Source: a virus (taxonomy: Duplodnaviria; Caudoviricetes). Taken from it: a DNA stretch of 64,000 nucleotides. A model generated the notes under the pieces. It saw only the letters and a program-made list of their open reading frames with translations. It was not told the DNA's origin and searched no databases. Shown piece by piece: positions 652-30,054 of the stretch (position 1 is its first letter; the number at the start of each line of letters is the position of its first letter). Location: the IMG/VR virus record IMGVR_UViG_3300028914_001625, positions 18,751-82,750 of that record; one strand, given 5' to 3'. Position numbers and translations under genes: made by a program.

Positions 652-2658
652 TTAGATTTTTTGCTTTTTGTTTCTCTTAAGAGTAATTACAGGCATTTCC
701 ATGAAAGAGTAAGTTGTTACAGCGTCTGCCTTCTTAGCAGGCTTCTTCAAGGTAATGCGTTCTTCCTTAACTTCCGCGTCTTGCTTTTCTTTAACTTCAA
801 TTTCAAAGTCAAGATCCATTGGAGTGTTGAGCCAGCAATGAAGATGGCCGTCATAAAAGCAATTACACATATCCATAATTTCACGATTAGTCATCTGTCT
901 TACAGTGAAGTCACCCATCTGTTCACAAAGGTGAGGAATACGTCCGTTGTCTTGGTTGATTAAGATGCAGACATCAGGCTTGGTAGCATCAATGTCAAAC
1001 TTATATTCGTGTGCCCAAGAAAGTTTCAAAGTAAGACCAACTTCATTACGGTCAGTTTCCGGATTTCTGTAGATCTTAGAGTCATAATCTACCTTCATGC
1101 CGCGAGACTGAAGATAGCTAGCGACATCGTTGAGATTCTTCTGATTTACAGGAATGACGAGGAGAGATGGAAGCATGTTATCATTAAGATAGACATCTAA
1201 TCTCTGAACGTTCTTAAGAACTTTCTTCTTCTTTACCATTTTCTTTTCTTCCTTTTTCTTTAAGCCAAGATTGCTTTCCATAAGTTGGCGAACCTTCTCT
1301 GACAGATCATTCTTTATTTTTTCAAGTTCATTTGGTTCAGCGCTGCGGCGCAGCATTGTATTTGCGCGGCATCTTGCGACAAAGTCCAGCATTTCTTGCT
1401 GGTTCTTTCGTTCATCACCCCAGCGGTCACAATCGTAACCTTGCATTTCTTGCTGATGCTTTAGTTCGTCACCCCAGCGGTCATAATCGTATCCGACTTC
1501 TTGATTCATTTCTGTTTCCTTTTCAGTTGTGGTTAGTGTAGTTACATGTGGATAAAATTCAATCGGTCCTTCATAAAAGCCAGTGCATTCATTAAGCTTG
1601 AGTTGATAATAGTCGTTAATCATCATGTACTTAACAAGCATGATTCTTGTATTTGCGTAGCACTGACATACATCTGATTTTTCCGACAGTTCGTCACACC
1701 CATATCCGTAGCATTCATCTTCCCAATTCCAAGTTCTATAAGTATACTTGTGGTCATGAATTTTTACATCTATCTGGTCAAGATGTCCAGCAGGATAAAT
1801 CAAGTTCTTGGGAGTTCCATCATTTTTCATCTCAAAGAACTTGTGATACTCCTCACGCGGCAAGGGCGACTGCACTCTTGTCTGCTTTCCAATAGTCTGG
1901 AATACCAAGTCACGTCTGTCGTCATCATCAATGTTTTCAAACTTCTTGCCGACATTAGGCAAGATTTCAGACACAGTACCGAACAGCCAATACTCTGCAT
2001 CACTGTCTTCAGATTTAAATCTGAAGTTCTCGAGAGGGAAGAGCGGCTTGAAACCCTTATGATGAACAGAAGGTCTTGCTCTGTTCTCATTTTCATTACT
2101 CTTCAACGGCCAAGCGTCATTGTAAAGAGTAAGCAAGTAAAGAAGTTTAGCAACCTTCAAATATCTTGGAGTTCCGTATTCAAGCTGGGTTGTCCTGTTA
2201 GAAACTTGCCAAGGAACCTGACCCCAAGATATAGCCTTCACTTCAGAAAGCGGGATGGTAAGTTCTTCATTGGTGTTATAGCTGGCAAAGTCGCCATCTT
2301 CCCAGTCATCATGCCAAGCAGGTTCAAGATGCAAACGTCCTACACAGTCAAACTTCTTAAACCAGTAAGGTTTCAGTGTGAAATTGAAATCTGACCTGAA
2401 GTCGCCGTGAGTGCAGAGCTTGATGTACATCGGCTTGGAAGGTTCAAATTCCTTAAAGAGCGGGAACTCGAAGTAAGTCATTCTTCCCCAGCCCATACGG
2501 TTAAGGCACTTATTGTCCTTAAGAATTTGGCCGGAGATTACATAATCCTTCTCATCCCGCTTGTCAATGTTATCAAGTAAATAACATTTCTTGTCTCCCC
2601 ATACATAACTGACATTCTCGCCAATCGGAGACATCCAAAATTTAAAGTTGCTTGCCAT
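652..2658 (-). CDS. hypothetical protein, 668 aa
   Basis: Long ORF, TAATG-coupled to the upstream gene; no motif recognised. Confidence 0.85.
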   Translation of the reverse strand: MASNFKFWMSPIGENVSYVWGDKKCYLLDNIDKRDEKDYVISGQILKDNKCLNRMGWGRMTYFEFPLFKEFEPSKPMYIKLCTHGDFRSDFNFTLKPYWFKKFDCVGRLHLEPAWHDDWEDGDFASYNTNEELTIPLSEVKAISWGQVPWQVSNRTTQLEYGTPRYLKVAKLLYLLTLYNDAWPLKSNENENRARPSVHHKGFKPLFPLENFRFKSEDSDAEYWLFGTVSEILPNVGKKFENIDDDDRRDLVFQTIGKQTRVQSPLPREEYHKFFEMKNDGTPKNLIYPAGHLDQIDVKIHDHKYTYRTWNWEDECYGYGCDELSEKSDVCQCYANTRIMLVKYMMINDYYQLKLNECTGFYEGPIEFYPHVTTLTTTEKETEMNQEVGYDYDRWGDELKHQQEMQGYDCDRWGDERKNQQEMLDFVARCRANTMLRRSAEPNELEKIKNDLSEKVRQLMESNLGLKKKEEKKMVKKKKVLKNVQRLDVYLNDNMLPSLLVIPVNQKNLNDVASYLQSRGMKVDYDSKIYRNPETDRNEVGLTLKLSWAHEYKFDIDATKPDVCILINQDNGRIPHLCEQMGDFTVRQMTNREIMDMCNCFYDGHLHCWLNTPMDLDFEIEVKEKQDAEVKEERITLKKPAKKADAVTTYSFMEMPVITLKRNKKQKI
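1387..1494. repeat. in-frame 54-bp imperfect tandem duplication (GYDYDRWGDELKHQQEMQ / GYDCDRWGDERKNQQEML)
   Basis: Two copies of gcatttcttgctg...caccccagcggtca.aatcgta.cc with period 54. Confidence 0.9.
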
Positions 2659-2903
2659 TAAGTGTTTCCTCGTGAGTTAGGAGTCTTAGTACTTCCACTC
2701 ACATACTTAGTGTGAATTACATTAGCAGTGATAAAATGTGCTACTTTCTCAAGGAACCTGTCTTCTTCAAGATAGAAGATGTCCATTCCATACCAGCTGC
2801 AAAAGTTTGACATAAACTGACCAAAACGCCAGTCTGGGAAGTTCTTCTTGTGAATTTCCTTCAGTTGTTCATAGAAGGTATCAAGACGAGCAGCATCTCT
2901 CAT
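2658..2903 (-). CDS. small phage hypothetical protein (MRD..R....PDWRFGQ type), 81 aa
   Basis: ORF with AGGAA RBS; N-terminal pattern common in phage hypotheticals. Confidence 0.85.
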   Translation of the reverse strand: MRDAARLDTFYEQLKEIHKKNFPDWRFGQFMSNFCSWYGMDIFYLEEDRFLEKVAHFITANVIHTKYVSGSTKTPNSRGNT

Positions 2904-2935
2904 TTTAAGTTCCTCTTTTAAAGTTTTCTAAAACA

Positions 2936-2970
2936 AAAATATAAAAAACTTGGGGTCTTGTAAACCCCAA
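2936..2970 (-). promoter_or_regulatory. sigma70-type promoter (TTTACA-17-TATTTT) with -35 inside a hairpin that may also terminate the upstream gene
   Basis: -35 at 2959-2964, -10 at 2936-2941; TTGGGGT/ACCCCAA arms at 2950-2970 followed by a T-run on the minus strand. Confidence 0.65.
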
Positions 2971-2993
2971 ATTTATAAGATCTTTCTTAAAGA

Positions 2994-3428
2994 CTAAAGG
3001 CTAAACAAACCATAGCCTGCGCCTTCTAACTGGAAGCTCTGTTCTTGATTCGGAATGTAGTAACGTTCCCATTCAAAGTCAGGAATGAAGTGCTTGACCA
3101 ATTCCATAGCGATGGAAACAAAGTCGTCGTCGCCATCAACCCAGTAGCGCTTATCATCATCGTCGTCATCATCATTTTCAAGATACTCTTCCTTAATGAT
3201 TCCGAGCTCAAGAAGCTTGTCAAGGGCTTCGCCGCGAATATATCTGTCTTCGTAGTCGCTGCACATTTTTTGAACGTCGCAGCCAAGTTCTTTAGCACAC
3301 TTTTCAAGAGCTTTATCAATCTCCTTACCGGAATGATTAGCGCAGATAGTCCAATCTTCTTTAAGACCAGAGCCATCGCCTGACGGATCGCCCATTGTGA
3401 AAGTGATAATGTGATTTTTCTTTGCCAT
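2994..3428 (-). CDS. hypothetical acidic protein, 144 aa
   Basis: ORF with AGGAA RBS; poly-Asp tract; C-terminal GAGYGLF. Confidence 0.85.
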   Translation of the reverse strand: MAKKNHIITFTMGDPSGDGSGLKEDWTICANHSGKEIDKALEKCAKELGCDVQKMCSDYEDRYIRGEALDKLLELGIIKEEYLENDDDDDDDKRYWVDGDDDFVSIAMELVKHFIPDFEWERYYIPNQEQSFQLEGAGYGLFSL

Positions 3429-3441
3429 AGTATGTTTCCTT

Positions 3442-3957
3442 TTATTTTGTTTGAATTCTTTTCACGACGTCAGCCTGCATCTTTGACCAATCAGGATCCG
3501 GCTGTTCGTCCATAATCTTGTCTGACCATTCTTGATTAGCACAAGGCTGGTAGTCACCGCAGGTACCACAGGCACACTTACAGGTATGACAGTAAATGTT
3601 ACCGTCCGAAGGAATGTAAGCACGGAGCTTATCAGACGGGTCAAGATAGACGACAAAGTGGACGGGATATTCCCAGTCGCCGCCTGCCCAACACCAGACG
3701 ATAGCGGTTCCATCAGGAAGAACGCGAGAACCTTCAGTAGCTCCTTCACAGTTCTCGAAGTCAAAATCAATCTTTTCAAGATCCTTACGAGCCTGCGTGT
3801 CGCTGTAAGCCATAGAAGACAGATACTGACAAATTATCTGGTCTTCGTCAGTTTCATCAAAATCTTCTGGGTCAATTTCTTGGTCCTTTCTGATAAACTC
3901 AAGCATCTTTTGAATGATGTCTTGACGAGTTGAACCTTTCTTAGCATATCTTGCCAT
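3442..3957 (-). CDS. hypothetical protein with Cys-rich cluster (CHTCKCACGTCGDYQPC), 171 aa
   Basis: ORF with GGAG RBS; possible metal-binding segment. Confidence 0.85.
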   Translation of the reverse strand: MARYAKKGSTRQDIIQKMLEFIRKDQEIDPEDFDETDEDQIICQYLSSMAYSDTQARKDLEKIDFDFENCEGATEGSRVLPDGTAIVWCWAGGDWEYPVHFVVYLDPSDKLRAYIPSDGNIYCHTCKCACGTCGDYQPCANQEWSDKIMDEQPDPDWSKMQADVVKRIQTK

Positions 3958-3981
3958 AGTTTTACTCCTTTAATACTTTCC

Positions 3982-4182
3982 TTACTTTTGAACACAAACC
4001 CAGTTAACGGAGCCGCCATTACTCTGGTTATTCCTTACACTAGGTTGAGCCTTTGCCCATTCCGCACCTGCAAAGCGGCATGTAGCAGCACTATTAAATT
4101 CCTGAGTTGCTACCGTTGAACTGCCCCAACCCGCATAACCGGAATTACCTGCAAAGACGATAGTCATAATGAGAATCCACAT
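3982..4182 (-). CDS. small secreted/membrane protein (MWILIMTIVFAG...), 66 aa
   Basis: Start moved to ATG 4182 (GAGGT RBS, avoids overlap); hydrophobic N-terminus and two Cys. Confidence 0.7.
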   Translation of the reverse strand: MWILIMTIVFAGNSGYAGWGSSTVATQEFNSAATCRFAGAEWAKAQPSVRNNQSNGGSVNWVCVQK

Positions 4183-21900: not shown

Positions 21901-24634
21901 GACCGTCGTTAATAGTAACGTCACACCATTTATTGGTATGTCTTACCTTTGGCCAATACGTTACGAGCTGCGACTCAGGATGTTCTGGTGTAGCAGGCAA
22001 TTCATATGTTCTAGCTGCATAGAATGACTTCAATGTAGACTTATCGTCTTCATCATTGATTAACCAGCCTGACCAGTCTTTATCATCCTGCCAGAAGCTT
22101 GGGTCAGTATCTATCAAACCTTCCGTCATCGCTGTCATGTTCTGAAGGAAGCAACGAATCAACATCTTTTCACTGATTACATAACCTGTAGTATCGTCAT
22201 CAGTCTTAAATGCGCCACCAAGTGCGTGATTAGGTATTGAAAGAATTGCTGCAAGTGGGCAGCAGTTTTCAGTCCACCAAGGGCCATACTTCTTCTCTAT
22301 ATCATTTTCACTAAGACCTGGTTTTTGTCTTACCAAGTCATTGTCTCGTGCGGAGATAAGAATGTATCTGTCTTTCTCTTCAGAATAATACTTATAGACC
22401 GGGCTTACTGCCTGCCAGCCTGGGTAGTTCTGTGACGGATTGCCGGCATACCAAACCTTAAGCCACTCTTCGTTCCAGTAATACTTAAATGTTTTTTCTT
22501 CACCGGCAGCATTCTTAGCAGTTAACTGCATTGAGCCGAGCGGGTTAGTAGCAAGGTTGATAATCATTCTATCCCAGCAGTGGGTAGAAGAATCACGGTA
22601 CTTCGGTTCCCATGCAAGGTTTGTGAAGTTCTTTGACACGATCTTTGCAGGAGTACCTTCCTGTGTGAAAATCTTAATATCGTCTTCGCCAACAATGTAG
22701 TCAGTTTCAAGTCCGATACCCACATCAGAAATCTTAGACTGCCAACCTAAACTTCTAATCCATGTGTTGTCATATCTGAAGACAACGCGCTGGTCATAAG
22801 ATTCGTTGTTCCAAGAGAAACCGATAGCCATGTTAATGATATGCGACTCAAGAGTCGCATCTTCACCAGCCTCAGTATCTACACCAAGTCCAAGTTTTTT
22901 AAACAAGTCAACCGGCTGTTCAGTGTCTGGGTCAAGGAAGTAACCGAACTCTCTGTTCTTAGCGAGTTCTTTTTGAATGTCTTCCATCACGGCAGGATCG
23001 ACATCAGGGTCTTCATGTTGAAGATCATCAAATGCCAAAGTAACTGGGTCACCATCTTCATCTTTGTCTTGTATGATGATTATCGGTTGATGAGTTTGTT
23101 CGTCATATTTGATACTGCCGTCAGGGTTGCGGTCAAATGTAACGCCTTCAAGCGTGATATCATTTGCATCAAATGATGCTGCGCCGTCAATCATCAACCA
23201 CGGAAGCACTGAAAGATTCATTCTACCAGCACGGAACTTATAGCGACGTTCGCCCATACCTGCTTTCTTATCAAAAGCAGTACCGTGAATTTCAAGGAAG
23301 TATCTTGTCTTAGCTCCAGTATCTTCATTAACTGCATCTTGACCGATGATAAGAATCATGTTTCGTCCATAAGGGTCATCAAACACAGTCAAACGAGATT
23401 TATCGTTTTCGTAAATTCTCTTAAAGGTATCATCAGCTAACATTGAGTCAATGTAGCCTTTACCGCGTGAGCCGAAGTACTTGATGAAGTAAGCAATGTC
23501 TGCTACATTCTCAGTAAGGTCAAGTGACTCAGGAGTCAAACCTGTGTAGTAAGTAGCACGCTGTCTTGGAGCTGCTTCAACACAAGCAAATTGTCCGTTA
23601 GTGTTATAACCACCACCATACTGAGCATAAAGACCTTCAGCGAAATAACCTACATAAGGGCAAATGTTACCCGGAGAGTTAATACACCAAGAGTTCAAGA
23701 AGTAGAAGTTTTCACCATCGTCATACTTCTTACGGATAGTCGAGAAATCTGTGTATTCATCTGACTTATTAGAGACAGAATAAACCTGAGGCACGAAACC
23801 TGAGAACGTAAAGTTGTTAAGTTGAGAACCATCAATGTTTTCAACTCGTCCATAGTTTCTACCAACAAGAATACCAGCATTAACATCTCGTCCATCTGAC
23901 TTGATGTGGTTCAAGTTGATGAGCTTGTTACAAACAAGTGTCGTTGCGTCGTTCTCTGCTTCACGAAGTTTGAAGTTTCTTACGATACCGTCTTGTCCAA
24001 GAACACCTACAAGACCGTTGTCATCATTATCACAAATGATAGTGCCAGCGACTGTATGTCCGTTACCGTCAAAGATACCTTGGAACGGATACTTTTCATC
24101 TTTACCAATCTGTCCACGGATAACGCCGTTGATGTCGTCACCGATAACACCGATTACTCGGTTGTTTGCTTCATTGACGTGGTCAGCAAACCAACGAAGT
24201 TCTTCCTTCGTTCTGATGTAATAGAAACCACCTTGCTCAAGATAGTCGCTGATAGCCTTATTAGCAGAAATATCTGAGTAGTAAGTAGTCTTACAGAAGC
24301 GTTCCCAGTTTGACTCTTTACTGTAAACGCCTTTCTCGCCCATAGCACCGGAGGTAATGAACATCGGCTTCTTGGTGCCGCTTGTATCAGCAGGACGATA
24401 CCAAGTGATGTCATTACGAATGCCAGAAAAACGCATATCGTAATATGCTTCTTGCTTATTCATCTTGAAGTCATCAAGTGAACGATACTGCGCTAGCTTA
24501 TAATTCGATGATGGGCTGTCACCGAACTCGTCTTTAAAACGGTTATTCACAGGAATGAAGTTCCAAGTGTCATTACCTGGAACTTCGCCATTAAGGAAAC
24601 GCTGCTTAAATGAATTGAAAATAACAGACGCCAT
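18971..24634 (-). CDS. giant virion protein (~1887 aa) with GLUG-like beta-helical segments
   Basis: Start MASVIFNSF at 24634 (TAATG overlap); YIRTKEELRWFADHVN...FQGIFDGNGHTV...GLVGVLG...NAGILVGRNYGRVEN plus two later GG.VG-type segments. Confidence 0.75.
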   Translation of the reverse strand: MASVIFNSFKQRFLNGEVPGNDTWNFIPVNNRFKDEFGDSPSSNYKLAQYRSLDDFKMNKQEAYYDMRFSGIRNDITWYRPADTSGTKKPMFITSGAMGEKGVYSKESNWERFCKTTYYSDISANKAISDYLEQGGFYYIRTKEELRWFADHVNEANNRVIGVIGDDINGVIRGQIGKDEKYPFQGIFDGNGHTVAGTIICDNDDNGLVGVLGQDGIVRNFKLREAENDATTLVCNKLINLNHIKSDGRDVNAGILVGRNYGRVENIDGSQLNNFTFSGFVPQVYSVSNKSDEYTDFSTIRKKYDDGENFYFLNSWCINSPGNICPYVGYFAEGLYAQYGGGYNTNGQFACVEAAPRQRATYYTGLTPESLDLTENVADIAYFIKYFGSRGKGYIDSMLADDTFKRIYENDKSRLTVFDDPYGRNMILIIGQDAVNEDTGAKTRYFLEIHGTAFDKKAGMGERRYKFRAGRMNLSVLPWLMIDGAASFDANDITLEGVTFDRNPDGSIKYDEQTHQPIIIIQDKDEDGDPVTLAFDDLQHEDPDVDPAVMEDIQKELAKNREFGYFLDPDTEQPVDLFKKLGLGVDTEAGEDATLESHIINMAIGFSWNNESYDQRVVFRYDNTWIRSLGWQSKISDVGIGLETDYIVGEDDIKIFTQEGTPAKIVSKNFTNLAWEPKYRDSSTHCWDRMIINLATNPLGSMQLTAKNAAGEEKTFKYYWNEEWLKVWYAGNPSQNYPGWQAVSPVYKYYSEEKDRYILISARDNDLVRQKPGLSENDIEKKYGPWWTENCCPLAAILSIPNHALGGAFKTDDDTTGYVISEKMLIRCFLQNMTAMTEGLIDTDPSFWQDDKDWSGWLINDEDDKSTLKSFYAARTYELPATPEHPESQLVTYWPKVRHTNKWCDVTINDGHVNDIEGSIDFYLIDTKNLHYAPVTHAVPRQGHEDLPCPAGVVAGSVYDTVRDAGSTFGKILSNWANNRGSWTNVFGSELEAATYSMHHVAEMYIKDPRYYGLDFNGDFTTQVVRTSNFAYGYGTPYLNSWGFSPTLGMSTNVIHYNWNIEKMMFKNNETMNGFFTDYDEGDIKDKNIKYLDLPHAVYNKPLRMAHMARAAYNISPVVGANYGHISNVIVKTTRRNRGNFVGFLGGVAGKQERGLVEHVSTDIIDEPTWYMEYAQEPVVDFYNQELANEQISKYKSKIANDNFHVRYKMTPIIPGAKSSALQEIGANPAEDSKKYRYYPEDSEDLVDESRLLTTYEDWENATQAEIDRFTEYLTTLNKRGIRVYRITQDEGSSIKETNYSLQHPDLYPYFTENPNYVNDYAFYQEAKPIIDFCSEWYADCENATTMPLDDVVTFRLRPIFNAGGVFGRLIPTNQNENKIELKTNQKYNIVTFRDINTSYQLNDIHDPSCNEHVNDAYIINKDVHNAFGSFAGLLDVQTSQLGNRSLNTSQKLLSMQSVNSVGKLKEYRPNKTDESDLNMFGYISTQFNEIPSVLATEGPGRDKGGDWTGPDTYTTWAIDVPMPMYRDLALSDYDPHYAPIGNSFAAFYGWDNDTIPDYGQTLLTAKNNQKISKEDIQIYIKTEVLGDIFDFNGVSMNSQVIGDFSNNIDIYKTKKNFQSVDSIFGSYLSFIPNFARTTQMQKDNLNKLKTAQYSSNLAQTFANQELLNQSSPSRIYYRDTVDWTRRDAGAAGQAVPIQESYSTTLDIDKLADKVVFEGKTNPEDLYFSYTYSAASAFLTDFTFRHQVQFTSAVKQDDNRRISDTRKAVYGYAFRDDLTNSADGFKYNNNYLHIGNSVSPRHIRETLLHNTSFTTSAVSAAMFRNNEIVPADDAHQFGGILVTDSQDRNVMFIDNTNGAQLDNVSYNIETPAINYGNTNGGLLMEVN

Positions 24635-26883
24635 TATGATTCCCACCTCTCAACGTAATCGCCCTTAGTGCCTTCATCAGTTTCTGGATATTGGCGCGGG
24701 ACGCTTAACGTAATACTAAACTTATCCATATCCGTATGTATAGTATTTATTTCCTCAGCGTCATAAAGCGTTGACTCGTTGTCGAGAATGATGTCTGTTG
24801 CTGATTCATCTCCTGAAGCAATGATCTTGTAGAATCGCTTCCAGTCAGTCATGATCTGCTTATCATCGCCGTCGCCAAAATAAGCCTTACATACTGAATT
24901 GATGAAGTCAATGTTATCAGTTCTGACCACATCAACGTTCTTTGACATTCCTGGAAGTTTCAAAGTATAGAAAATTTCAACTTCACCAGAAGGCAAACGA
25001 CAAAGGACAGGAATACCAATCGTATTCGGATAACGGTCAGTGCCCTTTGAAGCATAGTGAACCTTTGGCAGTCTTACTGTCTGATAATTTCGTTCGTCAT
25101 AATGCGAAAACTTCGTGTCATGAATCATCTTGATAGACTTATAGTCAAATCGCATTGAGTCATGAACGATAGCAGAGGTCATGCGAGGTCCTTTAATGAA
25201 ACGAGTGATGTCGTAATAGTAAAGCACCTTTGACGAGCCTGTGTAGCGAGGCTCTTTCATAATCTCGTCAAACTTATCCCAGCCGTTCTTGCCGTTCCAA
25301 ACGAACAATTCAGTTGTGTACTGTGTCGTTCTCTTGAATGTACACCAGTTAGCCAAAGTGTTTGACCACCACCAGACAGGTTTCGTCATCTTATCTTCAT
25401 CATTATTCATAAGTACTTTTGACTTTAAGTAACCGTTCTCACCTTCAGGCAATGTGTCAGTAGTAGCGCCTTGTGCGTAATACTCCTTAGGAGTTTTCCA
25501 AGCATTCTTGGGATCGTTCAATGCTTCATCGAGAATTTCATCAACATTTCTATTGTCAGAAAGTACTGGCTTAATGTTAATCGCTTTGACGAAGATAGAC
25601 TCGGTCGTGTAGTAATGTCTTGCCATTACATTATAGTTGGCCTTGACATAGTTTCCGCCGTCCATGTAAATCAAAGCAAGGTTATCATCATTTGTTCTTG
25701 TAGTCGATGTAGCTGTAATGTCTTCTGTATTCTGAATGATAGGTGTCTCATCTCTAAATTCATTAGCGAAGAGAACCATATCCTTCATCTTGTAAGTAGC
25801 AGAATAAGTATAGTAAGTGCAAGTGCCAAAAAGACTGTTGCTTCTTATCTGCATTATGTTATTCAAGACATTCTTATACACTGGGTTGTCTACCCAGTAA
25901 TAAATTCCTGATGAAGTATTAGTCACTGGTCTATACCAATCGTCACCTAGCTTAAACATGTGGAGTTTAAGTGTAGAGTTCCAGAAGAGGTTATTGGTAT
26001 GAAGCAAGCAAAGCGCATTATTATCAAAGATCTTAAGGTCAGGTCTTTGTGCATTGATAAGCGGCCAGAAATAATCAATAGTAGCGACATCTGGCAAAGA
26101 AGCTGGAATAGCGACTGCCTGTCCTGTAGTCGGGTCTATGACTCCTCTAAGTCCAAAGAATCCCCAGAAAGCAGTAAGTATCTGCCACATATCATTCTTT
26201 TTGTTTATAGGATAGTTTGGATCTCTTAAAGTGACAGCCCATCTACCAAAATCGTAAAGAGTGAACTCATCTTGAGTCCAGCGTTTTGAACAGTAGCTTC
26301 TTACATACCACAAGAACGAAGAAAATGCGTTCATGTCAGTAGCATTAGCAAGTGGAATCGTATTTCCTTGTGCATCAAGAATTGCTTGATTAGTGGTTTC
26401 GTCCCACTTTATGCCGTTGACTAAAACGCCTGCTTCATATCCTAGAAGATAGTAAGCATGCCCATTTTCAGGTGCAGTTATTTCGTCAAGTGTGCCTTTT
26501 ACGTCAGTAGGTAAAAGTCTTACTACTGTCAGACGCTTATCATTAATGAAGTCATAATCAGTACCGTAGCATTTATCAGCGGTCATAACTTCGCCAGGCT
26601 TGAGCGGAGTCAATGTAGGCCATGAATCAGTGTTCAATCCTTTATTAAGAATCGTAGCATCTGACGCATTAGCCATGTATTCTAATGCATTGTCATTAAA
26701 CTTTGTGTTCTGAAGAATTCTTGGGTCTTCTGCTACATCTTCATATCTGGAAAGGTCTGTCTTAATGTAAGGACAGAGTGTAGCATCTGCTTCGGTGCCG
26801 TTTTTCGGTATGTAGTAATGGACAAACCCAGGCCAGATATGTCCAAGACGATCTATGTTCCAATCATAATAAACCATACCCAT
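24634..26883 (-). CDS. hypothetical (probably virion) protein, 749 aa
   Basis: Long ORF; TAAATA late-promoter-like motif just upstream. Confidence 0.8.
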   Translation of the reverse strand: MGMVYYDWNIDRLGHIWPGFVHYYIPKNGTEADATLCPYIKTDLSRYEDVAEDPRILQNTKFNDNALEYMANASDATILNKGLNTDSWPTLTPLKPGEVMTADKCYGTDYDFINDKRLTVVRLLPTDVKGTLDEITAPENGHAYYLLGYEAGVLVNGIKWDETTNQAILDAQGNTIPLANATDMNAFSSFLWYVRSYCSKRWTQDEFTLYDFGRWAVTLRDPNYPINKKNDMWQILTAFWGFFGLRGVIDPTTGQAVAIPASLPDVATIDYFWPLINAQRPDLKIFDNNALCLLHTNNLFWNSTLKLHMFKLGDDWYRPVTNTSSGIYYWVDNPVYKNVLNNIMQIRSNSLFGTCTYYTYSATYKMKDMVLFANEFRDETPIIQNTEDITATSTTRTNDDNLALIYMDGGNYVKANYNVMARHYYTTESIFVKAINIKPVLSDNRNVDEILDEALNDPKNAWKTPKEYYAQGATTDTLPEGENGYLKSKVLMNNDEDKMTKPVWWWSNTLANWCTFKRTTQYTTELFVWNGKNGWDKFDEIMKEPRYTGSSKVLYYYDITRFIKGPRMTSAIVHDSMRFDYKSIKMIHDTKFSHYDERNYQTVRLPKVHYASKGTDRYPNTIGIPVLCRLPSGEVEIFYTLKLPGMSKNVDVVRTDNIDFINSVCKAYFGDGDDKQIMTDWKRFYKIIASGDESATDIILDNESTLYDAEEINTIHTDMDKFSITLSVPRQYPETDEGTKGDYVERWES

Positions 26884-26889
26884 TATTTA

Positions 26890-28383
26890 TTAGTATAGTT
26901 TATAGACGCGCTCGACCGTCTCGAACTTTTCTCCTTCATAATATGCCTGTCTTTCTCTCCAGTGCTTGACAAGATAGTTGTCAACTGTTCTACCTGTTCG
27001 AGTCTGATAGGTAAGATCATCAATGACATCAAACAATGTAACATTGTTCTTCTGCTGATGCTTTCTCAATCCACGACCGATAGTCTGAAGAACTGTAATC
27101 TTTGATTTACTATCTGCGAAGAGAATTACATCGTGAAGCTTAGGTACATTCACGCCCACTGCCATCGTCTGGTAGTTAGCGACAAGAATAGTTCCGTCCT
27201 CGGTATTGATGTCCTTTCTAATCTTATTACGTTCGGAGCCTTTAACGCCGCCGTAAATGACTTCAATCTTGCGAGTCGGGAAAACCTTCTTCAACCAGCT
27301 TGCTACGTCCTTTAGATGCTGGACGTGGTTCACGAGTATAAGAATGTTATTGTTTATATTACGATGAGAAATAATGAATTCCAGGACATTATTCCGGCCC
27401 TCAAATGACTCGACCATTTTGACCTCTTCCTGCCAAGATCTGTTCTTGTTTTGCTGAACAAACTCAGGCGGGAACTTGGCAAAGATATTCATTATCTTAA
27501 TCTTCGCAAGAACGCCTTGGTCAATCAGTTCATGAGACTTAAGCTCATAGATGATATTTCCAAGGTTTGCTTGAATCTTCATCTGCGAGAGTTCATCAGT
27601 AGGTAAAGTACCAGTACATCCGAACTTTACTTTTGCATTTACGCAGTGTTGAAGAATGTCAAAGAGCTTCATCGCCTTAGCGCCGTGCGTTTCGTCAACG
27701 ATTACAGCGTCATACTTCTCAAAGAACTCTGGTTCCTTATGCTGTAACGATTCCCATGTCGAGATAAGGACAGGCATGTCAAAGTCTGCCTTGTTGCCGT
27801 CTCCCTGGATGGTAATCTCTTTATCAGGATCGTCATAACCGTAATCGAGAAGGTCATCACGCATCTGATAGATGAGATGAATCGTCGGAACGATAAGAAG
27901 AATGTGCTTGTAATTTTCCTTTCTTAACGCACGGACAATGTTATAGATCATCAAGGACTTACCTGAGCCTGTGCAGGAAAGCAAGATGCCTCTCTTGTGT
28001 GTAAGGGCAGCTCTTATCGCCTCGTCTTGATAAGGACGAAGTGTCTTTCCCGAGTTTCTCATGAAGTACTCGGTGCTCTCTTTATACTTAGCTTCATTCA
28101 AGGTTCTTGTGAGTTTCTCTTCATCAATGCCGTCGAGCTCATATTCATAATGCTCTTGCTTGCACCAGTTGAGAAGGTCTTCCAAGAATCCGTAAGGAAG
28201 CAACCCTGAGCCAGGACGGAAGAAATGTGTCTTGCCGTCCCAACGTCTGTCTTTATATGCTTGAGAATACTGATAGCCTGACTTGTATGCTGCATAACGA
28301 GAATGCACTTCAGACAAGATGTCTAGCTCACCTTGTAACTCAAGAAATGATTCGTTTACTTTGCTAATTCTAATATCTGTCAT
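26890..28383 (-). CDS. uvsW: UvsW SF2 DNA helicase
   Basis: LRPYQ, Walker A CTGSGKS, DETH box, GCTGT, TMAVGVNVPKL, LQTIGRGLR; T4 UvsW-type N-terminus RWDGKTHFF. Confidence 0.92.
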   Translation of the reverse strand: MTDIRISKVNESFLELQGELDILSEVHSRYAAYKSGYQYSQAYKDRRWDGKTHFFRPGSGLLPYGFLEDLLNWCKQEHYEYELDGIDEEKLTRTLNEAKYKESTEYFMRNSGKTLRPYQDEAIRAALTHKRGILLSCTGSGKSLMIYNIVRALRKENYKHILLIVPTIHLIYQMRDDLLDYGYDDPDKEITIQGDGNKADFDMPVLISTWESLQHKEPEFFEKYDAVIVDETHGAKAMKLFDILQHCVNAKVKFGCTGTLPTDELSQMKIQANLGNIIYELKSHELIDQGVLAKIKIMNIFAKFPPEFVQQNKNRSWQEEVKMVESFEGRNNVLEFIISHRNINNNILILVNHVQHLKDVASWLKKVFPTRKIEVIYGGVKGSERNKIRKDINTEDGTILVANYQTMAVGVNVPKLHDVILFADSKSKITVLQTIGRGLRKHQQKNNVTLFDVIDDLTYQTRTGRTVDNYLVKHWRERQAYYEGEKFETVERVYKLY

Positions 28384-28452: not shown

Positions 28453-29022
28453 TTATTCTTCGTCAGTCTTTTTCTTTCTTGTTGCTTTCTTTACTGGTGT
28501 TTCTTCTTCAACAGTAGCAGGCTCTTCTGCGATGTCTACTGGTGCATCAGTGACTTCTTCAGTTTCACCTTCGGTCTTACCATCATCTTCACATACTGGT
28601 TCTTCAGTAGCTGTGTACTGAATTGGTTCAGCAGGCTCAGTTGCTTCTGTCTGAACGTAAGACATTTCAGGTGGAAGAATTGGTTCCTCTTCCTTCTTAG
28701 CGTTCATTGCTTCATACTGTGCTACTGTCATCTTGCGCTCGACGAGAAGCTTTCTGTATTCAGCTGGAACATTGTGCGACTTACAGTATTTCATCAATAT
28801 CATGAATGCCTCATATTCCTTTTCCCACTCATCCATCGCTGACTGCTGTGGCTGAGGTCTATGAACTGGAACTACCTTCGGTAATACCCTTGCTGCTGTC
28901 TGCTTGTTCTTCTTATTCTGTTCTTTCAATACACTATCAGGTACTGGGAACTTTGTATTTGCATTTGCTGTGTGGAACATTCCGTATGCCATGTTTCTTT
29001 TATCCCTCCTTAATTTTCTCAT
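28453..29022 (-). CDS. hypothetical protein with acidic low-complexity tail (start uncertain: 28992, 29022 or 29076)
   Basis: ORF; TAAATA motif near 29056; E/T/P-rich C-terminus. Confidence 0.75.
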   Translation of the reverse strand: MRKLRRDKRNMAYGMFHTANANTKFPVPDSVLKEQNKKNKQTAARVLPKVVPVHRPQPQQSAMDEWEKEYEAFMILMKYCKSHNVPAEYRKLLVERKMTVAQYEAMNAKKEEEPILPPEMSYVQTEATEPAEPIQYTATEEPVCEDDGKTEGETEEVTDAPVDIAEEPATVEEETPVKKATRKKKTDEE

Positions 29023-29070
29023 AATAAGAAACTCTCCATTATAATAATTTCTATATTTATTTGGAGGCTC

Positions 29071-29392
29071 TACCATCTTTATTTGATATGGTAACTGGAG
29101 ACAGTAAGCCCATACGGGGAACTTACTGACTCAAGGCTTTCACTTTATTTTGACTGGTGAACTGTTTGACCTTGTAAGAAGTCTTACTGTAAGTTTTACT
29201 GGGCGGCTATCCGGTACCCAGGCTTAACTAACTTACATGCTTATAGCGGCATGCAAAACACGGGCTAGGTGTTTTTCCTTCGGTTCTACATATATGAGTC
29301 TGAAGCGAACCTTATTCAGATATGACTTGCACATGCCGATAGCTCATTGGGTTGAGTCTCGCTCCTGTAAGCAAGATTAAAATGTTTGAGTC
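29071..29392 (-). ncRNA. candidate structured non-coding RNA (multi-stem, family unassigned)
   Basis: No ORF; at least 8 hairpins plus a long-range closing helix GACUCAA/UUGAGUC; TATATT -10-like box immediately 5' on the minus strand. Confidence 0.55.
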
Positions 29393-29625
29393 AAATATAA
29401 TTACTTTTGCCGGCTAAATGAACAACGGAAAAATTTTTCCTAAGAGCCTAGAGAATCCTGTAAAAGTCCTTTTGACTTGTTCTATATATAACAACTTTTT
29501 TCGTTTTTGGCGGTTTTACTTCAAATTCTTTCTCAGGAGTTCATGCTTCCTTCTGCTAGGAAAGATTTTAAGCGGACAAATTTTAAGTATAAATTTATTA
29601 AATTTCAATCAGAGGTTATAAGTAT

Positions 29626-30054
29626 ATGGCACTACTGACTAATGAAAAATTTGCGGCTATGAAGATCATGGCGGACGCCGATGTAAAGATGGGCGACACC
29701 TTGACGGAGATAGCTAAGAAAAACTCTGAATTACCTGGCTTAATTCAGAAATGGACTAAGTATTATACAAGACAGAACTATGAAGTCACAATGCTGGAAA
29801 TCGCATTAGATGAATCATACGGCGAGTTGTATAGAGACAAGAAGTTTAATGACAATGTAGACTGGGGAACATCTTCTAAAGGGATAGATTCTCAGATTAG
29901 ATGCGATAAGGGATACTGCGAAAAGCTTAGACAGTTGGCGGCGCAGAAATACTACCTTAATTTCATTTCGGAAACTCTTGCTAATTTAAAGCAGATGCAT
30001 TACACTATCAAGAACTTCAACGACTACAAGAAAATTACAACGACAAACTTGTAA
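29626..30054 (+). CDS. uvsY: UvsY-like recombination mediator
   Basis: 142-aa helical protein matching the UvsY pattern (KW...Y, D..., L..LKQMHYTIKNF.DYKK), next to uvsW, gp46 and gp47. Confidence 0.75.
   Translation: MALLTNEKFAAMKIMADADVKMGDTLTEIAKKNSELPGLIQKWTKYYTRQNYEVTMLEIALDESYGELYRDKKFNDNVDWGTSSKGIDSQIRCDKGYCEKLRQLAAQKYYLNFISETLANLKQMHYTIKNFNDYKKITTTNL

Follow-up and report, generated by a model that had tools for sequence, protein, structure and literature searches.

What does the non-coding gap beside uvsY encode in this phage? The source was an 82.7-kb IMG/VR virus record, estimated to be 25% complete, and the window analysed here is a stretch of 64,000 nucleotides that forms part of that record. 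The gap lies between an unassigned open reading frame and UvsY, with a UvsW-type helicase next in line (Table 1), and gp46/gp47-like SbcC and SbcD genes are also present near the locus. The source phage is T4-like. Within the gap, an interval on the strand opposite to uvsY, at a point of divergent transcription, had been put forward from the sequence as a structured non-coding RNA candidate. This original prediction was borne out in part, and the boundaries claimed for the candidate were nearly exact. Based on the sequence comparisons described below, we have high confidence that the interval is a real gene for a conserved structured non-coding RNA, representing one paralogue type of the cow-rumen-2 family. 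The GC skew around the locus tracked gene direction only.

Table 1. Genes, RNA domains and signals at the locus, in window coordinates.
Feature	Position	Strand	Remarks
UvsW-type helicase	26890-28383	minus	
ORF without Pfam or PHROG match	28453-29022	minus	directly downstream of the RNA
Gap between ORF 28453-29022 and UvsY			600 nt
UvsY	29626-30054	plus	
AAATAAATA-type motif	29051-29062	minus	between the RNA and the next gene; resembles a T4 late promoter
RNA gene, predicted extent	29065-29387	minus	~323 nt; ends placed from the -10 box and ACAU (5') and from the end of conservation (3')
A-rich module 2 (tail hairpin)	29065-29097	minus	near-copy of module 1
3' domain	29098-29174	minus	helix, A-rich module 1, long hairpin
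Long 3' hairpin	29132-29122 with 29108-29098	minus	loop carries the family UUCC motif
A-rich module 1 (internal)	29164-29134	minus	
3'-domain helix	29174-29170 with 29136-29132	minus	encloses A-rich module 1
Core, RF02947 match	29175-29281	minus	UAGC-loop hairpin, GCCGC junction, long bulged stem, inner hairpin
Pseudoknot region	29282-29324	minus	P3, variable hairpin, PK1
Pseudoknot PK1	loop 29311-29307 with 29286-29282	minus	partner immediately 5' of the Rfam motif
Variable hairpin	29320-29315 with 29304-29299	minus	loop 29311-29307
Junction stem P3	29324-29320 with 29293-29289	minus	encloses the variable hairpin
5' domain	29326-29375	minus	P1 and P2; outside the Rfam model
P2 hairpin loop	29353-29346	minus	8 nt, nearly invariant
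Stem P1	29375-29371 and 29368-29366 with 29333-29326	minus	encloses a conserved GGAG junction and hairpin P2
-10 box TATATT	29394-29399	minus	sigma-70-like promoter; conserved columns in the family

The neighbouring reading frames were also inspected. The ORF downstream of the RNA begins with an arginine-rich N-terminus that the syntenic relatives retain (MRKLRRDKRN / MRTLQRRRHKRG). Behind it come a short EYEAF block, also conserved, then a long acidic tail and finally an end rich in lysine. The arginine-rich N-terminus could represent a putative RNA-binding peptide. A 749-aa ORF downstream of uvsW (24634-26883, minus strand) had no Pfam or PHROG match. The word TTATATATAG (minus sense, 29482-29491), located ~135 nt upstream of uvsY, was invariant in three syntenic contigs within a spacer that was otherwise poorly conserved, and may be a candidate plus-strand promoter for uvsY.

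The original prediction regarded the RNA as novel, and named a match to a known Rfam family as the result that would remove this novelty. A search with cmscan against Rfam 15 identified such a match, and the centre of the RNA is therefore not new. Model positions 1-106 of cow-rumen-2 (RF02947) matched 29281-29175 on the minus strand with a score of 68.5 bits (E = 1.3 × 10−10 on the 64-kb window), which passes the curated gathering score of 66 bits. The syntenic relatives also matched the model, with scores of 69.5 and 70.1 bits; typical family copies scored 90-108 bits. The window subgroup is thus a divergent cow-rumen-2 variant, barely above the cut-off. The borderline score is due to the junction and loop, where the window and four syntenic relatives carry variants (GCCGCUA and ACCGGAUAGCC in the window) of the cow-rumen-2 consensus (AGCCGCCA and ACAGGAUGACC). 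The 7-bp hairpin with a UAGC-type loop and the long GUA-bulge stem enclosing a GG/CC hairpin were both present, and have been kept by compensatory change.

No family besides cow-rumen-2 was identified by cmscan against Rfam 15 in the whole window. A permissive search of 28900-29700 (E up to 10) returned only cow-rumen-2 and two chance-level matches on the other strand. Consistent with the predicted lack of tRNA, tmRNA and RNase P hallmarks, ARAGORN identified neither a tRNA nor a tmRNA at the interval, and the models of RNase P, 6S, SRP and the other described RNA families gave no cmscan match there. Likenesses to the RNase P P4 element, tmRNA ends, a sarcin-ricin loop and the L11-binding site of rRNA were considered by eye and rejected for wrong order or no covariation, and also because no model matched.

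Cow-rumen-2 was reportedly first described in the supplement of a 224-motif survey (2017). The Rfam entry comprises 106 nt, is typed 'Gene; sRNA' and is given without organism or function. Within the searchable literature, which does not extend to the supplements of the 2017 survey, the only paper to name the family is that on Rfam 15, which lists it (PMC11701678). A 2023 survey of structured RNAs in IMG/VR dropped those candidates that overlapped Rfam families, and no RNA above 151 nt was reported. The 5' domain, the 3' domain and phage carriers of cow-rumen-2 were absent from Rfam and from the searchable literature, and it is for these two domains and for the phage origin that the claim of novelty stands. 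A blastn search of GenBank phages with the whole spacer gave no match. Judging from the full-length alignments described below, the 106-nt Rfam motif forms no more than the central part of a knotted RNA that is roughly three times longer (320-400 nt).

Two contigs found via UvsY showed the same gene arrangement and the same RF02947 match. Alignment with these contigs revealed a block of ~320 nt that was far better conserved than the remaining gap, with an identity of 76-86% compared to 44-62% in the flanking spacers. A degenerate core pattern and a separate pattern of the 5' part were then each found in many viral contigs, and essentially all of these matched an nhmmer profile over the full length, and not over the core alone. 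The full-length matches comprised 5 syntenic and about 50 more distant copies. After duplicate removal there were 56 distinct copies with a mean identity of 56%, all of them on T4-like phage contigs from ruminant-gut samples. A 15-mer exact scan returned mostly chance matches, with L004 and L008 as the only new relatives. The absence of an ORF, as originally claimed, was borne out: no conserved ORF was present in the interval, and the longest ORFs in 11 relatives (27-79 aa) were not shared. The RNA block had a G+C content of 45% compared to 41% for the window. The folding energy of the interval (-82.8 kcal/mol) was better than that of the shuffled controls (z = -2.73).

The structure of the 5' domain and core was modelled on 45 aligned sequences using RNAalifold, a covariation scan and mutual information. 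In this alignment, 88.8% of the cells were paired, compared to 68.4% in shuffled alignments and 30-41% with slid partners, and the covariation score was 0.512 compared to 0.173 in the control. The homologues covary, with 42 of the 53 pairs changed on both sides. The structure was assigned to the minus strand based on an excess of G-U over A-C, albeit modest (108 compared to 64), together with the strand-specific RF02947 match.

Within the 5' domain, P1 was paired in 88.6% and P2 in 81.7% of the cells, and 7 of the 9 P1 pairs had changed on both sides; compensatory changes in this domain were also seen within the window subgroup (L004). Stem P3 was 94.3% paired, with all 4 pairs changed on both sides (45 sequences). 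The variable hairpin corresponds to the UCUGAA/UUCAGA hairpin of the original prediction and PK1 to the suggested pairing of its GGUUC loop with GAACC, and both were supported. Across the family, the PK1 partner is formed by the 5-7 nt immediately ahead of the Rfam motif, for which more than 25 different sequences are used. The two sides change together: cognate strands paired over 4.75 bases on average and non-cognate strands over 3.75, and 0 of 5000 permutations reached the cognate value, in a control that ignores relatedness. Among the five syntenic copies alone, the PK1 strands co-vary in four different pair sets. A run-length test of the whole region was non-discriminating, and became discriminating once limited to the hairpin loop.

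The core helices (6, 8, 9, 10 and 11) were 79-100% paired in the 45 sequences, with most pairs double-changed, and those of the window were 76-96% paired in 11 relatives. The G of the UAGC loop contacts the AGCC junction (columns 217/264: G-C in 33 sequences, A-U in 10). Covariation throughout the family was also seen in the outer stem of the Rfam model (columns 245/311: G-C in 30, A-U in 12; columns 247/308: C-G in 28, U-A in 14). The family also contains a second pseudoknot, PK2, in which the strand preceding the UAGC hairpin pairs over 2-3 bp with the 3' strand of the inner hairpin; it was not evident in the window subgroup (columns 201-202 of the 45-sequence alignment). One further hairpin outside the Rfam model was supported family-wide and is lacking in the window subgroup.

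The remaining helices of the original prediction were scored on the 11 and on the 45 relatives. The AAAACAC/GUGUUUU helix of the UAGC hairpin had 7 of 7 pairs changed on both sides (11 relatives), and the long UGUAAGUU/AACUUACA arm with CUGGG/CCCAG was 89-96% paired. The CAGUAAG/CUUACUG 3' hairpin was 97% paired in the 11 relatives, with CCC/GGG replaced by U-A in three sequences. The AAGG/CCUU and UUCAC/GUGAA helices and the last hairpin held in the closest relatives but not beyond them. The GACUCAA/UUGAGUC helix, thought to close the whole domain, was not supported: only 46% of its cells were paired, near the level of the slid controls. Its 5' strand (29392-29386) spans -5 to +2 of the presumed start, i.e., lies in the promoter, and is therefore probably mostly untranscribed. 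The GCAUGC/GCAUGU and GUAAG/CUUAC helices each share positions with the outer stem of the Rfam model, which covaries, and in the form proposed they are doubtful or unlikely; GUAAG/CUUAC was 96% paired in the subgroup and could be an alternative pairing. The RNA contains GUAAG three times and CUUAC four times (29103-29372, minus strand). Several mutually exclusive pairings result, so that alternative folds are possible.

Other long-range contacts were considered. Pairings of the P2 loop with the UYGA junction, of the UUCC loop with GGAG and of the 3' hairpin loop with the 5' domain were rejected as subgroup-specific (L160 type) or as involving invariant bases. In L160 (752-1076), L155 and L148, an 8-nt complementarity links the 3' hairpin loop CUCUACCGG with the conserved CGGUAGAG in the 5' domain and may allow a long-range pairing, which is not seen in the other subgroups.

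Homology spans the entire 3' domain, although this domain is more variable and could not be aligned family-wide. In MFE folds of the tails, three features recurred: a helix between a GAGA-type strand and the conserved UCUC strand, a UUCC-loop hairpin ending in GGCU, and a pair of nearly identical A-rich modules. When the internal element was locally aligned with the tail element, the mean score was 18.2 for cognate and 12.6 for non-cognate combinations (0 of 1000 permutations). In one 424-kb phage, each of the four paralogues has a different twin sequence; the twin is therefore a property of the copy type rather than of the phage. A search of the rest of the window for the twin motif or its complement, as antisense targets, gave 6 matches with 6.6 expected.

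The predicted TATATT box was conserved across the 56 copies (column counts T54 A52 T50 A44 T43 T52), and its spacing to the first helix was constant in 43-54 of them. Most family members carry TTTACA at a 17-nt spacing upstream of this -10 box; the -35 position of the window (29422-29417) is degenerate. A conserved ACAU is located 8-10 nt downstream of the -10 box (29385-29382 in the window). From these signals and the extent of conservation, the window RNA would start near 29387-29385 and end near 29065. A reading of the promoter as a Bacteroidota -7 box (TAnnTTTG) was dropped, as these bases also agree with a sigma-70 -10/-35 pair spaced by 17 nt. The full Bacteroidota promoter pattern was not enriched, and the promoter was not taken as Bacteroidota-specific because Shine-Dalgarno motifs are common in the window. 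No MotA-box-like motif was conserved upstream of the 56 copies.

No terminator-like site was found after the window copy, and the window RNA could therefore be a long 5' leader of the next gene. Several other copies have clear hairpin-plus-U terminators directly after the tail, and in the L064 group the RNA forms an antisense island between genes of the other strand, which argues for a discrete RNA. The space that separates the RNA from the next gene contains TATAAATA, the late-promoter word of T4, in most other copies and AAATAAATA in the window, and the window motif presumably has a late-promoter role by analogy with T4.

Multiple dispersed copies are present per genome. Four copies each, dispersed and on both strands, are present in two complete genomes of 424 kb and 416 kb that have terminal repeats, and three in a 411-kb genome; the window's record contains one. 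The genes downstream fall into at least 8 unrelated contexts, including a baseplate hub, a tail tube, a 1000-aa protein and several unknowns. Adjacency to uvsY is limited to the 5 syntenic copies of the window subgroup. Approximately three quarters of the copies are followed by a co-directional ORF starting within ~130 nt, and some copies are convergent with the next gene. A tRNA array adjoins the RNA at 1 of 51 loci only, this being L159, in which 18 tRNA genes (1820-4041, minus strand) lie directly upstream of and on the same strand as the RNA copy (~1383-1751). Furthermore, ARAGORN identified a tmRNA gene (tag ANTYAMAA) in L086 (4369-4722, minus strand), a 137-kb T4-like contig, ~3 kb from a cow-rumen-2-type copy.

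The RNA family is restricted to T4-like phages of the ruminant gut. A search for the 5' pattern across 185,579 species genomes matched only contigs of ruminant-gut MAGs. The MAG labels were incompatible with each other (Bacilli, Methanobrevibacter, Clostridia and others), and the T4 gp23 capsid gene was present in 5 of the 5 MAGs checked, in the Bacilli MAG on the same contig as three RNA copies. The RNA-bearing MAG contigs are thus mis-binned giant phage genomes. Contigs of 173-266 kb that carry the RNA in MAGs labelled Bacilli or Methanobrevibacter are L179, L180, L187 (JAZLKX010000052.1), L181 and L183.

For the function of the RNA we offer a proposal. A free-standing gene of ~320 nt would be read leftwards from its own sigma-70-like promoter, presumably by the host polymerase early in infection. 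The transcript would fold into three domains, namely a 5' stem-loop, a compact knotted centre and, towards the 3' end, a domain comprising the long hairpin and the twin modules. In the centre, the loop of the variable hairpin would pair ahead of the Rfam motif, and the UAGC loop would touch the AGCC junction. The product would most likely act as RNA and in trans, with the invariant knotted core binding a conserved partner (a protein, or further molecules of the same RNA) and with the twin A-rich modules, which differ between paralogue types, giving each copy its specific contact. An invariant knotted core, conserved unpaired bases, copy-specific twins and early-type promoters together form the profile of a scaffold or a ribozyme. 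Our confidence is evenly balanced on the reading as a whole, an enlarged cow-rumen-2 paralogue gene yielding an early-promoter, trans-acting RNA that binds a protein or itself. The mechanism, a trans-acting protein-binding or self-assembling scaffold, is put forward with low confidence.

As a cis-acting leader, the RNA would stay on the polymerase or mRNA and act as an attenuator, a riboswitch or a processive antiterminator of the HK022 put or lambda nut type. This reading is unlikely, although many features are consistent with it. The RNA is always directly behind a promoter, the ORF that usually follows is close and co-directional, the window copy lacks a terminator, each RNA contains two similar hairpin modules, several copies occupy different operon positions, and the next ORF in the window subgroup starts arginine-rich. 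However, the downstream genes are unrelated, a late-type promoter of its own usually intervenes between the RNA and the downstream gene, and some copies face the next gene or end in a clear terminator. A cis role fits poorly with this diversity of downstream genes and with the terminated copies. Furthermore, a length of 330-400 nt with pseudoknots is far above the known sizes of antiterminator RNAs, and we know of no antiterminator RNA in this range.

A wider reading, also doubtful, is that the family represents a new large functional RNA class of giant T4-like phages, either a ribozyme or a subunit of an early phage RNP, with the four paralogues specialised via their twins; the modules would then, for example, capture different host or phage partners. 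A ribozyme in its own right, in which the large knotted conserved core might catalyse self-cleavage, processing or a reaction on another substrate, is quite unlikely. The many invariant unpaired nucleotides, multistem junctions and pseudoknots fit such an activity, and the same profile has been used to nominate candidates such as ROOL (PMC5737381), but no ribozyme family in Rfam matched by cmscan and no conserved cleavage-site signature was recognised.

An assembly of RNA only, by which the RNA might form a multimeric cage or lattice like the phage-associated ROOL and GOLLD (10.1101/2024.12.08.627333 for the precedent), is very unlikely. This idea draws on the shared habitat and carriers (rumen, phages), the large ornate fold, the several paralogues per genome and the repeated A-rich modules, which could make intermolecular contacts. 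Against it, the RNA is smaller than ROOL and GOLLD and has no homology to either, no self-complementary kissing loop emerged from the analysis, and the UAGC loop, in its palindromic part, covaries with a partner inside the molecule.

The structured pre-primer of an R-loop replication origin near uvsY, in the manner of T4 ori(uvsY) or ColE1 RNA II, which the original prediction had offered, is extremely unlikely: the place of the window copy beside uvsY at a point of divergent transcription, the three to four dispersed copies per giant genome (similar to the number of T4 origins), the early-type promoter and the A-rich modules speak for it, but the four dispersed copies lie in unrelated contexts (beside baseplate, tail-tube and unknown genes), so that the proximity to uvsY is incidental, the pairing under selection is that of the RNA and includes pseudoknots, which an R-loop would not need, neither a MotA-type middle promoter nor an AT-rich unwinding element is conserved, and the local GC skew merely follows gene direction.

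For annotation, a false lead is thereby removed, as the RNA block is not evidence for a uvsY-type origin. An orphan 106-nt 'sRNA' in Rfam is now the core of a knotted RNA of 320-400 nt, and its carriers are identified as giant T4-like phages of the ruminant gut. Complete genomes of these phages maintain four copies that have diverged and lie dispersed, every one behind a promoter of its own. The meaningful object for experiments is the full-length RNA, and not the 106-nt piece. To our knowledge, few phage RNAs are large, conserved and pseudoknotted, and those described so far (ROOL, GOLLD) proved architecturally unprecedented.

Several known systems bear comparison. In T4, ori(uvsY)/oriF is an R-loop origin at which a transcript arises from a host-type promoter near uvsY, and RNA II of ColE1 is a folded RNA able to prime replication. 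T4-type R-loop origins (oriF/oriG) are tied to the promoter region of uvsY or gene 34, and combine a middle-mode promoter (MotA box) and a following AT-rich unwinding element with a persistent RNA-DNA hybrid. The window RNA likewise would be transcribed from a host-type promoter near uvsY; however, the family is not tied to uvsY, and it is the knotted fold that is conserved, not an unwinding element or a middle promoter. In HK022 put and lambda nut, two similar hairpins lie directly behind early promoters; RNAs of this type act in cis on the polymerase that transcribes them, and always precede co-directional genes whose terminators they override. The family shares with them two similar hairpins behind a promoter, several copies per genome and a position upstream of co-directional genes, whereas it is five times larger, has a conserved knotted core that put and nut do not, and includes copies that are terminated or facing the next gene. 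ROOL and GOLLD are likewise large, intricate, free-standing, pseudoknotted and function-orphan RNAs of the rumen and of phages (PMC5737381; 10.1101/2024.12.08.627333). The window RNA is about half their size, has no sequence or model similarity to them and is generally not beside tRNA genes. The closest relative remains cow-rumen-2 (RF02947) itself, with which the window RNA shares the UAGC-loop hairpin, the GCCGC junction, the long bulged stem and the inner GG/CC hairpin, and which it extends by the 5' domain, P3 with PK1, the loop-junction contact and the twin-module 3' domain.
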